A stretch of 57,294 bases of DNA from Candidatus Woesebacteria bacterium GW2011_GWB1_39_12 (GTDB lineage Bacteria > Patescibacteriota > Microgenomatia > UBA8517): contig LBWB01000002.1 in the NCBI GenBank assembly GCA_000993405.1, positions 1-57,294 on the forward strand, in the 5' to 3' direction. Positions 8,753 through 20,440 of the stretch are shown piece after piece. Made by a program: the position numbers and the translations under genes. Every line of letters begins with the position of its first letter. The stretch's first letter is position 1. Below the pieces are notes generated by a model that was not told the DNA's origin, did not search any database, and saw nothing but the letters and a program-made list of their open reading frames with translations.

Positions 8753-10417
8753 ATGATCATCCTAAAAATTTTCAAAAAAATAAATTGTTTTGAAATGACA
8801 CTTTTTCTTTTACTTTTTGTATTTTCAAGCTTCTTGATGTGGAAAACATTTCAGGTTACACCGGAAGGAGATCTAAAATTAGCCTCAAGAGTTTGGAGCG
8901 ATTTTGCGGCAACAATTCCCTTAATAAGATCTTTTTCATTCGGTTCTAATTTTCCACCCGAGTATCCAATTTTTGCAGGACCCCCAATTCGTTATCATTT
9001 TCTATTTTTTGCAGCTGTTGGTTTATTAGAAAAAACCGGCATTAGACTCGACTTAGCTCTAAATTCTCTAAGTACGATATCCTTTTTCCTATTAACGATT
9101 GCAATCTATTACCTGGGCAAAATGGTTTTTAAAAGTAAAAAGGTTGGTATCCTCTCGGTTATACTTTTTCTTTTTAACGGTTCCTGGGGATTTTTAGAAT
9201 TTTTTAAAAAAAATCCTATATCCCTGAATATTCTAGACGATATAGTGAAAAATAGAGAATTCTCCTCTTTCGGACCGTATGACGGAAAAATTGTTTCAGC
9301 TTTCTGGAGTCTTAATATTTTCACTAATCAAAGACACCTAGGCTTAGCTTATGCCGCATTTCTCTTTCTCATGTTATTTTTATATAGATATTCCAAAAAA
9401 CCCAGGAAGCTCACCTTGAATAAAATTTGCATCCTGGGCATCATTCTCGGACTCTTTCCTTTTATCCATATGGCTGTTTTCGGAATGATGGGAATAGCCA
9501 TCCTAGTAGCTTTTTTAATATTTCCGAAGATAAGAATTAATATTTTTGCTTTGGGCTGTATTGCACTTATTCTTGCCATTCCTCAATTTCTATATATGGG
9601 AGAGAGTGAGGTACAAACTTCTCTTATCCGCCTGGGTTACCTTCTTGAGGACAAAACTTTTATAGGCTTTTTAAAATACTGGCTGATGAATTTTGGATTT
9701 ACATTAATTCTTGCTCCAATCGGCTTCGTCATAGCCAAAAAGCCCCAAAAGAAAATTGCTTTGCCTTTTTTGGCACTTTTTGTAGCCGGAAATATTTTCC
9801 AGTTTTCACCCGAAGTTGCAGCTAATCATAAATTTTTTAATCTCTTTATAATCGGAGCAAACCTATTTACAGCATACTTCTTATTTAGACTTTGGAAGTT
9901 GAAATCTCTAAATAAAGTAGTTAAAACTCTCTTACTCTTACCCTTACTCTTACTTCTAACTCTTACTGGCCTCATAGATTTTTTTCCGATTGTAAACGAC
10001 TCACTTTTGGTATTAAAAGATCACCGAAATAACCCAACCATATCCTTTATTCTCAATAACACCCCTAAAGATTCTGTCTTTTTAAATTCTTCATATCTTT
10101 ACCATCCAGCCTCTTTAGCGGGGAGAAAAATCTTCATGGGTTGGCCATACTTTTCCTGGTCTGCGGGATATGATACTGATAAACGGGGAAAAGAGCTTGA
10201 CAGAATTTACACCTCGAATGAGAAAGAAAAAGTCTGTTATCTTTTGAAGAAAAACAACATTGATTATTTTACTATCCAGGATACAAGTCGTGACCGTGAT
10301 TTTACCAAAATAAATGTTGTCTTTTTCAACAATAATTTCACACCTATTTATAAAGATTTGGCAGGCGCCATTTCCATATTTGAGGTCAAAACAAACTGCA
10401 CTACCACTCACCTATGA
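8753..10417 (+). CDS. Multi-pass membrane protein, probable GT-C glycosyltransferase
   Basis: WSDFAATIPLIRSF...NFPPEYP...PIRYHF loop, many TMs, soluble C-terminal domain. Confidence 0.65.
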   Translation: MIILKIFKKINCFEMTLFLLLFVFSSFLMWKTFQVTPEGDLKLASRVWSDFAATIPLIRSFSFGSNFPPEYPIFAGPPIRYHFLFFAAVGLLEKTGIRLDLALNSLSTISFFLLTIAIYYLGKMVFKSKKVGILSVILFLFNGSWGFLEFFKKNPISLNILDDIVKNREFSSFGPYDGKIVSAFWSLNIFTNQRHLGLAYAAFLFLMLFLYRYSKKPRKLTLNKICILGIILGLFPFIHMAVFGMMGIAILVAFLIFPKIRINIFALGCIALILAIPQFLYMGESEVQTSLIRLGYLLEDKTFIGFLKYWLMNFGFTLILAPIGFVIAKKPQKKIALPFLALFVAGNIFQFSPEVAANHKFFNLFIIGANLFTAYFLFRLWKLKSLNKVVKTLLLLPLLLLLTLTGLIDFFPIVNDSLLVLKDHRNNPTISFILNNTPKDSVFLNSSYLYHPASLAGRKIFMGWPYFSWSAGYDTDKRGKELDRIYTSNEKEKVCYLLKKNNIDYFTIQDTSRDRDFTKINVVFFNNNFTPIYKDLAGAISIFEVKTNCTTTHL

Positions 10418-16003: not shown

Positions 16004-17923
16004 ATGTCTATTGTATTTCACAAAACTAAATCCAACAACCTTCTTTCGAGCTTAAACAAAGAGCAAATCGAGGCCGTAACTTATGACGGCGGACCTCTTC
16101 TTGTTTTGGCCGGAGCAGGAAGTGGAAAAACTCGAGTCTTAACCCACAGAGTTGCCTGGTTTATCGGACAGGAAAAAGCTCGTCCTGAAAATATGCTCCT
16201 TCTAACATTTACTAATAAAGCCGCGGGAGAAATGAAAGACAGGGTTCTCAGATTAACACAACAAGCTCCGGCATTCGCTGGAACATTTCACTCATTTTGC
16301 GTAAGAGTTTTGAGAAAAAGCGGGAAATCAATCGATATAACACCCAACTTTTTAATTTATGACGATGATGATTCAAAAGAAGTTATAAAAGAAATTCTTA
16401 ATGAATTAAATCTTTCGCAAGATAAATATAATCCAAATGCGGTCGCTTCACAAATTTCAGAAGCAAAAAACCAAATGCTTACCCCGACTCAATATGCAGA
16501 GTTTATACGGGGCGAGTTTCAGGAAAAAGTTTTTAAGATTTGGAGCGAATATGAAAAACTTCTTAAAAAAACAGGAGCACTGGATTTCGACGATTTATTA
16601 TTAGAAACAGTGAAATTATTTGAAGATAGAAATGATGTGTTAAACCGCTGGCAGGAAGTCTTAACTCATATATTTGTTGATGAATGGCAGGACACTAATA
16701 AAGTTCAATATAAGTTGACCAGGCAACTTGTCGGAGCGAATGAAAATATTACTGCGGTTGGCGATGCGGCTCAATCGATCTACAGTTGGCGCGGTGCGGA
16801 TTATCGTAATATTAACCTCCTGATGAAGGATTATCCGAACATCAAAGTTATAAATTTGGAACAAAACTACCGTTCCACTCAAACAATTCTTGACGCAGCC
16901 AATTCAATAATCAAAAGAAATACCCAGCATCCCATCTTAAAACTCTGGACAAATAAAAACGGAGGGCAAAAAATAAAAATTTATAGAGCCAGAAGTGAAT
17001 TGGATGAAGCTTCTTTTGTACTTAACGAGATTGATAATTTAATTACCAAAGGACTTGAATTTCAAGATATTGTGATCCTGTACCGAACAAATGCTCAGTC
17101 GCGTGTTCTCGAAGAAGCCTTCTTACATGCAGGAATTCCTTATACCTTGGTCGGGGGAGTAAGATTTTATAGTAGAAAAGAAGTCAAAGACGTACTTTCA
17201 TATTTAAGGCTTTTGGTTAATTCTAAGGATACGGTTTCAAGGAAAAGAATTGAAAAACTTGGAAAAAGACAGCATGAGAAATTCAAAGTCTTTTCAAAAA
17301 AACTTTCTCAAGATTGGCAGGAAAAAGCAACAACATTGGACGTGATGGATGCGGTATTACAAGATACTGATTATCTTTCAAAATACAAAAGAGAGACTGA
17401 AGAAAATGTAACAAGACTCGAAAACATAAAAGAACTTCGCTCGGTTGCAACCGAATTTCCGAATATAAATGATTTTCTGGAAAATGTCGCACTCATTGAA
17501 GCAGAGCAGGATGAAAAAGGAAAAATTAAATCCCGAATCACTAATCACGAATTACCCAGTAACTCTGTTACGCTCATGACCCTCCATGCCGCTAAAGGCC
17601 TGGAGTTTCCGGCCGTTTTTATAGTCGGAATGGAAGAAGGGCTTTTCCCCCATTCAAGAAGTCTTTTTGATATGAACGAATTAGAGGAAGAACGAAGGCT
17701 TGCATATGTTGGAATAACCCGAGCAAAAGATATTCTTTATCTTACATATGCATCACGCCGCCTCTTCTTCGGACAGAGAACAAGTAATCCTCCGTCAAGA
17801 TTTATAATAGATATTCCGGAAAATCTGCTTGAAGGAGTTGAAGGCAGTTTTTCTGATTTTGATGTTAAAGACAAATTCGACACCGATTTCGCCGATGACG
17901 TCGACAACTCAATCAATTTTTAA
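16004..17923 (+). CDS. PcrA/UvrD superfamily 1 DNA helicase
   Basis: AGAGSGKT, TFTNKAA, VDEWQD, NYRS, TLHAAKGLEF and YVGITRA motifs; start moved to 16004 because the ORF-track start overlaps the divergent LCP gene. Confidence 0.9.
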   Translation: MSIVFHKTKSNNLLSSLNKEQIEAVTYDGGPLLVLAGAGSGKTRVLTHRVAWFIGQEKARPENMLLLTFTNKAAGEMKDRVLRLTQQAPAFAGTFHSFCVRVLRKSGKSIDITPNFLIYDDDDSKEVIKEILNELNLSQDKYNPNAVASQISEAKNQMLTPTQYAEFIRGEFQEKVFKIWSEYEKLLKKTGALDFDDLLLETVKLFEDRNDVLNRWQEVLTHIFVDEWQDTNKVQYKLTRQLVGANENITAVGDAAQSIYSWRGADYRNINLLMKDYPNIKVINLEQNYRSTQTILDAANSIIKRNTQHPILKLWTNKNGGQKIKIYRARSELDEASFVLNEIDNLITKGLEFQDIVILYRTNAQSRVLEEAFLHAGIPYTLVGGVRFYSRKEVKDVLSYLRLLVNSKDTVSRKRIEKLGKRQHEKFKVFSKKLSQDWQEKATTLDVMDAVLQDTDYLSKYKRETEENVTRLENIKELRSVATEFPNINDFLENVALIEAEQDEKGKIKSRITNHELPSNSVTLMTLHAAKGLEFPAVFIVGMEEGLFPHSRSLFDMNELEEERRLAYVGITRAKDILYLTYASRRLFFGQRTSNPPSRFIIDIPENLLEGVEGSFSDFDVKDKFDTDFADDVDNSINF

Positions 17924-19026
17924 TGGAAATAAAGAAAAATCCAGAAAAGAATAAAGAGACTCTTAGTAAGGCTTCTCCCCACCCACTTCAATCTCACGAG
18001 TGGGCGGAGTTTAGGAAGGCTTGGGGAAATGAGGTCTTGGAAACAAAATACGGAATAATTATTCTACATAAAATCCCTCTTACAAAATACAAAGTTGGAA
18101 TGTTTATAAAAGGACCAGTTCCCACCGCCAAAATGTTAGCCGACTTACGACAGATGGCTAAAAAAAATAACTTACTTTTTATCAAATTAGAACCGAATGT
18201 GGCGGTGGAATTTCCAATTTCCAAATCCCAAATTCCAAATAAATCCAAAATAACAAATCCCAATTTCAAAATACGATATTCGAAAGAAAAAGTTATAAAC
18301 TTACTCAAAGAAAACGGTTGTGTGCAGGGAAAAACTCTATTTACTCCAACCTCTTTTTGGATAGATCTTACTCCTTCCGAAGATGAATTATTGAAAAACT
18401 TTTCTTCCAAGACTCGTTACAACATCCGCTATGCCCAAAGAAAGGGGGTTGAAGTTGTTGAAGACAACTCCAATAAAGCATTTGAAAAATATATCGAGTT
18501 AACTCGGGAAACAGTCGAGCGGCAGGGATTTTACGCCCACACCGAATCCTACCATCGGTTAATGTGGAAATATTTACACCCCACTTCGCCAAGGCTTCGA
18601 GGGGCAAGCCAATCACTTGCCTCGCCAAAGCTTCCAAGCGAAGGCGGGCCAATTGCTCGCTTGCTTACCGCTAAATACAATGACGAAATTATTACTTGCT
18701 GGATTATCTTTGTTTATAAAGATTTCCTTTATTACCCTTATGGGGCATCTTCCGAAAAGTACAAAAACGTAATGGCAAATAACTTAATGATGTGGGAAGC
18801 AATTCGCTATGGTAAAAAATTAGGACTAAAAACTTTTGATCTTTGGGGAAGAGAGCCCGGCAAAGGTTTTACAAAATTCAAAGAAGGCTACAACCCGCAA
18901 GTTGTGGAATTTATCGGAACTTGGGACTTAGTAACATCTCCTTTATATTGGCCGTATAGGACCGCCGAATTCCTTCGTTGGCAAATCTTGAGAACTAAAA
19001 GCAAGTTTGTGGAACCAAAGTTCTAA
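17923..19026 (+). CDS. FemAB/FemX family peptidoglycan bridge aminoacyltransferase
   Basis: HPLQSHEWAEF, KTRYNIRYAQRKG, YPYGAS, FDLWG and FKEGY motifs; carries two repeat-derived insertions. Confidence 0.85.
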   Translation: MEIKKNPEKNKETLSKASPHPLQSHEWAEFRKAWGNEVLETKYGIIILHKIPLTKYKVGMFIKGPVPTAKMLADLRQMAKKNNLLFIKLEPNVAVEFPISKSQIPNKSKITNPNFKIRYSKEKVINLLKENGCVQGKTLFTPTSFWIDLTPSEDELLKNFSSKTRYNIRYAQRKGVEVVEDNSNKAFEKYIELTRETVERQGFYAHTESYHRLMWKYLHPTSPRLRGASQSLASPKLPSEGGPIARLLTAKYNDEIITCWIIFVYKDFLYYPYGASSEKYKNVMANNLMMWEAIRYGKKLGLKTFDLWGREPGKGFTKFKEGYNPQVVEFIGTWDLVTSPLYWPYRTAEFLRWQILRTKSKFVEPKF

Positions 19027-19067
19027 GAATTATGCAACAACTAAGTACTTAGGAACTAACCATTGGG

Positions 19068-19436
19068 TTATACCTCTTTGACAAAGGAGCTTACGACGTG
19101 TGCAGCAAGTCTTAGCTCACGTTCTGTATCCAAACCAAATGTTTTAGGGTCTTTCATATTTCCCCCCGAATCGTAATAAAGTGAGTCGACTGCTGGCTGC
19201 AGATCTGTGGATCCCAAAGCAACGCCTTCTAATCTCATTTTATCAACTTCTTTTTTAAATTTTGTAACCTCCCAAAGTAATTTGTTCGCTGTATCCTCTC
19301 CGACAAGTCGAGTAAGAGTCCAGTGAGCATCACCTAAAGCAATTTCTGCTTTAGCAGAACCATTATCTAGGCTTAGAACTCCCTCAAACCTATCAGGCAT
19401 TACCTCTATTTCAAAATCTTTATTATCATCTACCAT
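19068..19436 (-). CDS. Hypothetical protein
   Basis: Open ORF; likely start MVDDNK at 19436, 7 nt after TATAAT; lies antisense between two FemAB genes. Confidence 0.5.
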   Translation of the reverse strand: MVDDNKDFEIEVMPDRFEGVLSLDNGSAKAEIALGDAHWTLTRLVGEDTANKLLWEVTKFKKEVDKMRLEGVALGSTDLQPAVDSLYYDSGGNMKDPKTFGLDTERELRLAAHVVSSFVKEV

Positions 19437-19501
19437 AACATATATTATAAGCACAGCAACCCTTCTAAGCAATAACTGTTAAACTTGAAAGGGTTTAGTT
19501 C

Positions 19502-20440
19502 ATGATCGACCTAAGACAAACTTCCGACTATGCAAAATACATGTCTTCTATTGGTTGGATAGTCGAAAGAAAAGATGGAGTAAATTATTTTATCAAGAAA
19601 TTTCCTTTAATTGGCTCTTTTATCAAAATCCAGAGGCCTAAAAAAATAGATTTTGACCAAATAACCACAATCGCAAAAAAATATCGCGCTTTTCAAATAA
19701 TCATCGAACCTATCCTACCCGCCCGTTTCGGGTCCAAGAGCTGGTCCTCCGCCGGTATCCGGACCAATAATCATAACTTAATAATACTACAGGGTTATAA
19801 ACAAAGTAAATCCCCTTACTTGCCTTCCAAGACAATTTACATAGATTTAACAAAATCTGAAAAAGTACTACTCAAAGAGATGCACTACAAAACCCGTTAC
19901 AATATTAAAAAGGCTTCACAAAATTCAACGACGAAGTCGCCGAAGTTTTTCAAAATCCAAATTTCATATGATATCGAAAAATTTGCCGACTTCTGGCAGG
20001 AATGCGCAAGGAACCAGCGAGGAATGTTTTTGTCGCAAAAAAAAGAAATTATTGAACTTTACAAAGCTTTTGGGGAAAATGCACATCTTATTCTTGTATA
20101 CCACAAAGACACCTCCGAGGTGGCCGAAAGGACTCCTCGGATGGTGGAAAAGAGAGAATTAGTCTCAGGAATTTTAATGATAAGAACAAAAGACATTGCC
20201 TACTATATGTATGCAGCCGCGTCAGACGCGGGTAAAAAATTATTCGCGCCAACTTTATGTGCATGGGAAGCAATAAAGCTTTCTAAAAAACACGGATCGA
20301 AAATTTTCGATTTTGAAGGAATTTATGACGAACGCTTTCCTCTGAAAAGTTGGCACGGCTTCACCCGTTTCAAAAAATCCTTCGGAGGGCGCGAAATTGA
20401 ATACCCAGGTGCTTTTGTTAAATATCGAATCCCGATTTAG
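19502..20440 (+). CDS. FemAB/FemX family protein
   Basis: KTRYNIKKA, YYMYAA, FDFEGI and FKKSFGG motifs. Confidence 0.8.
   Translation: MIDLRQTSDYAKYMSSIGWIVERKDGVNYFIKKFPLIGSFIKIQRPKKIDFDQITTIAKKYRAFQIIIEPILPARFGSKSWSSAGIRTNNHNLIILQGYKQSKSPYLPSKTIYIDLTKSEKVLLKEMHYKTRYNIKKASQNSTTKSPKFFKIQISYDIEKFADFWQECARNQRGMFLSQKKEIIELYKAFGENAHLILVYHKDTSEVAERTPRMVEKRELVSGILMIRTKDIAYYMYAAASDAGKKLFAPTLCAWEAIKLSKKHGSKIFDFEGIYDERFPLKSWHGFTRFKKSFGGREIEYPGAFVKYRIPI

Follow-up and report, generated by a model that had tools for sequence, protein, structure and literature searches.

Two neighbouring genes of Candidatus Woesebacteria bacterium GW2011_GWB1_39_12 are cell-wall (FemAB) genes and contain short GC-rich segments that are read in frame with the remainder of the protein. 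The question raised by this locus is whether such segments are inserted mini-repeats, comparable to the Rickettsia palindromic elements (RPEs), or local expansions of the genes themselves. The stretch of DNA analyzed here (57,294 nucleotides; the window) is contig C2 of the assembly of this genome (G000; 1.51 Mb, 38.9% GC). A previous reading made from the letters alone (the sequence-only reading) had assigned three segments, designated here E1, E2, and E3, to one family of selfish palindromes. We consider it likely that E1 and E3 each belong to a family of short GC-rich hairpin repeats, that these two families are unrelated, and that both segments reside in length-tolerant FemAB loops; we further propose a link of E3 to a Y1 transposase and of E1 to small GIY-YIG nucleases. 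In the following, G001 (a genome of the same genus) and further G-numbers denote related genomes, C-numbers denote contigs of G000, and L-numbers denote collected loci or contigs. Motif scans and counts in relatives covered 41 genomes, and each FemAB protein was aligned with 29 orthologues from related genomes. The collection-wide counts, from a scan with one genome per species and from a metagenome scan, are lower bounds.

In-Frame Inserts in Two FemAB Genes

The genes and segments in question are as follows:

17923..19026, plus strand: FemAB-1 gene, 367 aa (Pfam FemAB, 105 bits), carrying E1 and an AT-rich insert of simple repeats
19502..20440, plus strand: FemAB-2 gene, 312 aa (Pfam FemAB, 65 bits), host of E2, of a 7-codon insert, and of E3
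18580-18648, plus strand: E1, in-frame hairpin insert of 69 nt, codons 220-242, peptide PTSPRLRGASQSLASPKLPSEGG
18579-18608, plus strand: first unit of E1, a clear 30-nt family unit, CCCCAC-TTCGCCAAGGCTTC-GAGGGG-CAAG
18616-18648, plus strand: remainder of E1, a second, diverged unit after a 7-nt spacer
19714-19765 (approximate), plus strand: E2, GC-rich loop segment, peptide PARFGSKSWSSAGIRT
20109..20151, plus strand: E3, in-frame element of 43 nt
20110-20146, plus strand: hairpin of E3, CACCTCCGAGGTG-GCCGAAAGGAC-TCCTCGGATGGTG, codons 204-216, peptide TSEVAERTPRMVE

Both open reading frames (ORFs) matched the Pfam FemAB family (PF02388) in a profile search, and the nearest solved relative is the lipid II:glycine glycyltransferase of S. 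aureus (6snr, a FemX/FmhB match). The three GC-rich stretches and their peptides are present where the sequence-only reading had placed them, in two genuine FemAB genes, and all three preserve the reading frame. The local GC content peaks at 0.60-0.62 in 60-nt windows, compared with 0.39 for the genome. The predicted insert-derived peptides include TSEVAERTPR and SPRLRGASQSLASPK. GC-richness was rejected as a sole criterion; the genome has 1306 such islands, and it is thus unspecific. A simple perfect-stem hairpin finder was also discarded, since the bulges of E1 and E3 caused it to overlook both. Folding in sliding windows returned 412 strong regions, too many to interpret, and k-mer counts were used instead.

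The folding of each segment was compared with that of shuffled sequences. E1 forms a long imperfect hairpin of -31.6 kcal/mol, as against -21.6 kcal/mol for the shuffles (z -3.36; 1 of 200 shuffles as good). The 37-nt hairpin of E3 has a folding energy of -23.0 kcal/mol versus -13.3 kcal/mol (z -3.40; 2 of 200 as good). The folding of E2 is at the level of its shuffles (z -0.23), and no hairpin was seen there, so that the palindromic character claimed for all three segments holds for E1 and E3 only.

Alignment with the orthologues revealed that E1 and E3 are indels, even with respect to the same-genus genome, and that neither is conserved at the protein level. The site of E1, bounded by the conserved ...YLH and PIARLL, holds 0 or 9 codons in the orthologues and 23 in the window, which is exactly 69 nt. 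E3 is an insert of 13-15 codons that is absent from 29 of 29 orthologues; G001 reads ...GY-KDKE... at this site, versus ...VYHKD-TSEVAERTPRMVE-KRE... in the window. The location of the inserts was then assessed on AlphaFold (AF2) models built from the orthologue alignments. The models are confident, with a predicted local distance difference test (pLDDT) score of 88 and a predicted TM-score (pTM) of 0.85 for FemAB-1, and 90 and 0.87 for FemAB-2. A pLDDT below 50 was obtained for residues 1-4, 100-105, 109-111, and 222-232 of FemAB-1, and for residues 75-86 and 206-209 of FemAB-2. With the exception of residues 1-4 of FemAB-1, these segments coincide exactly with the insert sites in the models. 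E1 and E3 thus map to surface loops predicted to be disordered, and the model of FemAB-2 places E3 in the turn joining strands 194-202 and 218-228.

E3 Is a Dispersed Hairpin Repeat

Genome-wide BLAST and motif scans gave five E3 copies in G000, counting the one in the window. The other four are:

C12:24419-24461: copy in a MurE-like ligase gene, 41 of 43 nt identical to E3 (95%), same frame, TSEVAEWTPRIVE
C12:7021: copy in a GT1 glycosyltransferase gene, read as HLRGDPEGLLGRW
C13:23105: copy in a membrane-protein gene, stem altered on both sides with the pairing kept (CACCTCGGGGG / CCCCCGAGGTG)
C9:92961: copy in topA, CACCTCCGAGGTGAAAAACATTCACACCTCGGAGGTG

Each E3-core copy of G000 sits within a gene, at a depth of 217-807 nt; the gene calls for this census were crude ORF calls. 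The MurE and TopA copies occupy length-variable loops, as seen in alignments with relatives. The exact E3 pattern was found in four other genera among the relatives, and the reversed-pattern control gave no match. Two of the copies in relatives are intergenic, just past the ends of genes, and the 32-nt core of one intergenic copy, from another genus, is identical to that of the MurE copy. The family is present on at least 119 metagenome contigs, mostly of 30-50% GC. Its class pattern is a CACCT-NN-GAGGTG hairpin, and E3 can be seen as a 13-mer doubled in inverted orientation. The stem-closing GGTG lay outside the search pattern and is nevertheless present on the 3' side in 95 of the 120 copies listed.

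A FemAB homologue on contig L251 bears E3 (NTSEVAEWTPRRWKH) in a different loop, after IQLEPNI. The FemAB genes had been called hotspots; they are better described as having permissive loops of variable length. The recurrence fits repeated strikes on such loops and does not by itself demonstrate a targeting mechanism.

The E1 Unit Is a Covarying Hairpin of Many Phyla

The E1 unit is 30 nt long and has the general form CCCNCC-TTCGCCAAGGCTTC-GGN'GGG-CARG. Three copies are present in G000 (in the window, at C12:9412, and at C14:33491). With up to 3 mismatches allowed, 30 matches were obtained in 12 of the 41 relatives, mostly inside long ORFs, and none in the control. The unit was found in at least 120 genome records, and those listed come from Verrucomicrobia, Alphaproteobacteria, Acidobacteria, Bacteroidota, Planctomycetes, Patescibacteria, and others; it also occurs on 16 viral contigs. 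A BLAST comparison of the E1 and E3 units with plasmid and phage records gave nothing informative.

The search pattern for E1 left out the 5' arm of the stem. This arm pairs with the 3' arm in 93.5% of cells, versus 88.2% in shuffles (0 of 500 as high), and sliding the partner lowers the pairing to 40-59%. One stem pair is variable, and it covaries (G-C 44, U-A 29, A-U 3); the loop is invariant across phyla. The insert of RecF that contains an E1 unit is a clean insertion of 21 aa, absent from 9 of 9 orthologues.

Several loci show the E1 unit in other surroundings. On a Paceibacteria contig of 31% GC (L165:7517-7612), units stand head-to-tail with a 31-nt period in at least 3-4 copies. At L179:5963-6354, a locus of a deltaproteobacterial metagenome-assembled genome, the gene for a bacterial class A RNase P RNA contains a unit in its 5' part. 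Some units abut tRNA genes.

Local Expansion as an Alternative Origin

The GC-rich segments could instead be lineage-specific loop expansions, produced locally by slippage, small duplications, or template switching, and unrelated to any dispersed or mobile element. The host loops do vary in length in many orthologues, where they hold unrelated sequences and obvious tandem micro-duplications. E2, the 7-codon insert of FemAB-2, and the 'ttccaaat' insert of FemAB-1 are single-copy. Moreover, some E1 units lie within short tandem repeats: a flanking word of at least 7 nt is shared around 19% of E1 units versus 8% of controls. Against this stand the 41 nt that E3 has in common with a copy in the unrelated MurE-like gene, the shared core of that copy and an intergenic one in another genus, and the presence of both families, with loops conserved and stems covarying, at hundreds of unrelated loci. 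Because of these dispersed, near-identical copies, local expansion is refuted for E1 and E3, and we consider it improbable as a general explanation of the segments. For E2 and the two minor inserts, it stands.

In several unrelated loci, a 'ttccaaat'-type microsatellite is present on both sides of the E1 unit (in G000 at C12:9380-9460, and at L076, L098, L103, and L164). This suggests that the E1 hairpin promotes slippage, or else that it inserts into repeats of this type.

The Elements Behave as DNA Rather than as Protein Motifs

In long ORFs, the deeply placed copies of the E1 unit and of E3 occupy all six reading frames and both orientations. Among the copies listed from AT-rich loci, 62% of E3 and 56% of E1 units are located 20 codons or more inside ORFs of 150 aa or longer, compared with 73-74% of random positions under the same ORF criterion. 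The elements therefore land almost indifferently within and between genes. Both the E1 unit and E3 are stop-free in all six frames, which enables them to persist in genes.

A further explanation is that the hairpins are functional cis-elements under selection, such as pausing sites for the ribosome or RNA polymerase, binding sites for RNases or other proteins, or DNA sites, and that their spread reflects recruitment. The invariant loop and covarying stem of the E1 unit across phyla agree with it, as does the commonest inner loop of E3 (GCCGAATGGACT), which is identical in several unrelated contigs. Some copies also follow the ends of genes in a terminator-like manner, for example the E3 copy of G007, which is followed by a T-run. 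However, the copies are scattered over unrelated genes, RNA genes, and intergenic regions, in six frames and both orientations, and the closest relatives lack the hairpins at the same sites. The hairpins have no match in Rfam; besides tRNAs and one RNase P RNA, a search with the FemAB region and six E1-unit loci gave matches at chance level only. We therefore give this explanation little credence.

In agreement with dispersed repeats, the genome-wide search for further copies, which the sequence-only reading had suggested as a check, recovered E1 and E3 in unrelated genes and between genes, in G000 and in many other genomes. For E2, the only other copy in the 41 genomes is at the same FemAB-2 site of G012.

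E3 and a RAYT-like Y1 Transposase

A gene for a Y1/HUH protein resembling REP-associated tyrosine transposases (RAYTs), the partners of repetitive extragenic palindromic (REP) sequences, is present in G000:

C8:9625-10299 (9582-10355 with the repeats): RAYT-like Y1/HUH gene, 225 aa

The protein matches Pfam Y1_Tnp with 42.8 bits, which is over the cut-off. In NCBIfam, 'REP-associated tyrosine transposase' matches it best. The gene is bracketed on both sides by inverted copies of the repeat CACCTTAGAGGTGAAAT..TTCACACCTTGG. Of the nine copies of this repeat in G000, seven overlap the ends of called genes, one is intergenic, and the remaining one falls within a called ORF. Four of the six frames of the repeat contain stops. 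The topA copy of E3 (CACCTCCGAGGTGAAAAACATTCACACCTCGGAGGTG) agrees with it at ~29 of 35 positions, and the E3 core CACCTCCGAGGTG is 1 or 2 bases apart from the Y1-flanking hairpins CACCTTAGAGGTG and CACCTTCGAGGTG.

The same arrangement was observed in relatives. In G023, G033, and G028, the Y1 gene is bracketed on each side, 30-60 nt away, by CACCTTAGAGGTG or CACCTTCGAGGTG, and in G026 the motif is present on one side only. The chance expectation for the 11-base flanking motif is ~0.002 per locus. The Y1 gene was found in 30 of 41 relatives, in up to eight copies, and is thus common in the class. At L275:7856-8600, on a metagenome contig, a RAYT-like gene has the CACCTCCGAGGTG hairpin as an in-frame part of its coding region (…SLSPPRCVATHLGGV…), and three more hairpins directly follow its stop codon. 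The assignment of E3 as a REP of this Y1 clade would rest on the shared hairpin class and on this flanking arrangement, and the Y1 enzyme is a possible mobilizer of E3. An IS200/IS605 element at C3:46330 was rejected for this role since related hairpins are absent nearby. That site (C3:46330-47100) is a GC-richer stretch with an IS200/IS605-type tnpA (139 aa, 134 bits) followed by a tnpB-like ORF.

E1 and Small GIY-YIG Nucleases

All ORFs of the 120 E1 loci listed were clustered without bias, and the one informative cluster was GIY-YIG. Genes of ~80 aa from this family (Pfam PF01541) abut or overlap the E1 unit in ~9 of the 120 loci, and several of these loci have the order tRNA, unit, GIY-YIG. 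In the same-genus genome G001, one GIY-YIG gene lies within 250 nt of an E1 unit. G000 has eight small GIY-YIG genes, three or four of them beside tRNA genes and accompanied by other hairpins, including those of the CCGAGTCWGACTCGG family. As the E1 unit abuts GIY-YIG genes in some phyla, a nuclease-assisted or horizontally spreading origin is plausible for it; we treat the association as a lead and not as a mechanism.

Small GIY-YIG genes of ~85-95 aa were seen directly downstream of tRNA genes, with 1-2 GC-rich hairpins in between, one of which belongs to the 14-copy CCGAGTCWGACTCGG family. The sites of this arrangement in G000 are:

C8:96132-96470: tRNA gene, hairpin, and GIY-YIG gene
C12:88950-89335: tRNA gene, hairpin, and GIY-YIG gene
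C1:71100-71553: tRNA gene, hairpin, and GIY-YIG gene

Proposed Origin of the Inserts

The pathway that we propose begins with copies of E1 and E3 landing in length-tolerant surface loops of FemAB genes. Where the length of the insert is a multiple of three, it would survive selection and be translated as extra disordered loop residues. For E3, the most likely mechanism would be mobilization in trans, as a single-stranded hairpin, by a RAYT-like Y1/HUH enzyme; E1 may have originated with the assistance of a nuclease or by horizontal spreading. The inserts are probably neutral passengers, and the elements themselves may be selfish, as the sequence-only reading had put it.

Several observations weigh against this proposal. 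No consistent target-site duplication (TSD) or target motif was seen around the elements. E3 is flanked on both sides by AAAGA in A-rich sequence, and the same is present at the empty site of G001; flanking direct repeats were also considered as TSDs for E1 units and set aside, since their enrichment is weak. The copy number is low, at 3-5 per genome. Openness of all six frames is not rare, as 38% of shuffled E1 units and 8% of shuffled E3 sequences share it. As regards the enzymes, the NCBIfam score of the C8 protein (54.7 bits) does not reach the curated cut-off of 80, and the flanks of its gene are the TA-core repeat (CACCTTAGAGGTG-type) and not the CC-core of E3. A co-occurrence of Y1 homologues with E3 loci (4 of 119 listed) was dropped as support; it is not significant because the gene is common in the class. 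None of the eight small GIY-YIG genes of G000 adjoins a copy of E1 or E3. Finally, the hairpins could have a role at the RNA or DNA level.

A wider reading would join both families. It is possible, though we hold it only tentatively, that members of the Candidate Phyla Radiation (CPR) and other bacteria carry mini-repeats that are "translatable" and that each have a small nuclease or transposase as a partner. E3 would then be a stop-free, coding-compatible REP lineage served by a class-wide clade of RAYT-like Y1 enzymes. The E1 unit would be a pan-bacterial hairpin that spreads horizontally and is mobilized by very small GIY-YIG nucleases beside tRNA genes. The E1-GIY-YIG pair would be a nuclease-based counterpart of REP-RAYT, and both systems would continually remodel the surface loops of essential proteins.

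E2 and Other Features of the Locus

E2 is missing from the orthologue of G001, and the orthologue of G012 carries recognizably related DNA at the same site. No other copy of E2 was found elsewhere in the genome; across the 41 genomes, the core is confined to the FemAB-2 site of G000 and of G012. We conclude that E2 is an older, lineage-specific loop segment, neither a palindrome nor a dispersed repeat. Two further inserts were noted in the FemAB genes, and no other copies were found for either:

18205..18282, plus strand: second length-variable loop of FemAB-1 (aa ~95-120), EFPISKSQIPNKSKITNPNFKI, with AT-rich 'ttccaaat'-type simple repeats
19928..19948, plus strand: small GC-rich insert of FemAB-2, 7 codons, TTKSPKF, acgacgaagtcgccgaagttt

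The AT-rich loop of FemAB-1 is absent or shorter in most of the 29 orthologues. The TTKSPKF insert is absent from the orthologues of G001, G014, and G012, and another FemAB-2 orthologue (L056) holds GPERSRRRGGVF at its site; the 10-residue block around it (141-150) has a mean pLDDT of 68. In other genera, different GC-rich inserts are present at the same TopA and FemAB loops (L239, L243, L056, L019), and the inserts of the TopA loop are RHPERASRAEGS in G001 and SSDGGRMDSSEV in G007. The phenomenon is thus family-wide and involves several types of elements.

Between the two FemAB genes lie 476 nt (window 19027-19501) with an antisense ORF of 134 aa on the minus strand (19068-19472), for which no Pfam match was found. 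In G001, G014, and G002, the two FemAB genes adjoin with gaps of ~5-150 nt, and the antisense ORF looks like a lineage-specific inserted gene. A 13-nt palindrome, AGGGTACGACCCT or its complement, occurs at 11 sites in G000 (for example, C12:9079, 9210, 24682, and 79680-79714), mostly within genes and often read as (K/Q)GTTL(Q/K). Two of its copies share a glycosyltransferase gene with an E1 unit.

Significance and Comparison with Known Systems

If the proposed origin is true, in-frame colonization of essential genes by hairpins would be a general route of loop gain in tiny AT-rich genomes and not a curiosity of Rickettsia. It would also offer a testable link to enzymes, E3 being connected with Y1/RAYT and the 30-nt unit with small GIY-YIG nucleases; to our knowledge, RPEs have never been tied to an enzyme. 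Such inserts would inflate apparent divergence and yield spurious "GC-rich" peptides in annotation and alignment, and their presence or absence would mark recent lineage splits in uncultured bacteria. The papers searched by sequence and topic contained no description of such elements in CPR/Patescibacteria, nor of the E1 and E3 sequences.

The GC clusters of yeast mitochondria are short GC-rich palindromes that spread in a very AT-rich genome and occur in frame in var1. The resemblance is an analogy only, since these clusters are organellar and eukaryotic and have no sequence relation to E1 or E3. Miniature inverted-repeat transposable elements (MITEs) that create in-frame fusions, such as ERIC, BOX, QMITE1, and the MITEs of Anabaena, are likewise small non-autonomous repeats that lie inside ORFs without breaking them (PMC10969869). 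Unlike MITEs, each element described here is a single hairpin in its entirety and far smaller, and neither terminal inverted repeats bounding a body nor a TSD was recognized.

REPs and the REPINs related to them are imperfect palindromes of 20-40 nt, extragenic by definition, which are accompanied by a RAYT (PMC3116915, PMC3337134). E3 is similarly an imperfect palindrome of REP size with several dispersed copies, and in G000 and its relatives inverted copies of a hairpin closely related to it flank a single Y1/HUH gene. In contrast to REPs, all E3 copies of G000 are translated and lie deep in genes. E3 further differs in its very low copy number, in a Y1 protein (225 aa) that scores below the curated RAYT cut-off, and in the 1-2 bases that separate its core from the Y1-flanking one.

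The RPEs, with ten families (RPE-1 to RPE-10), are palindromic repeats of ~100-150 nt, mainly with one conserved peptide per family, according to PMC10969869, which summarizes Ogata et al. (2000). The elements described here differ from that account in their length (units of 30-45 nt, 69 nt for E1 as a whole; 30-69 nt overall), in forming two unrelated families, and in being read in six frames, with no conserved peptide. They also differ in their CPR-like host, in the spread of the E1 unit across many phyla, and in having a candidate mobilizing enzyme. The likeness concerns behaviour as that text describes it, the comparison being with the description of RPEs. A single RPE-like family embracing all three segments, as initially proposed, has to be replaced by two families without E2. 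In behaviour, the proposal is largely borne out for E1 and E3: like RPEs in the same account (PMC10969869), they are palindromic repeats of an AT-rich reduced genome, inserted in frame in unrelated housekeeping genes, translated as extra segments compatible with the protein fold, and present between genes and in RNA genes as well. The copies in RecF, MurE, and TopA behave alike.

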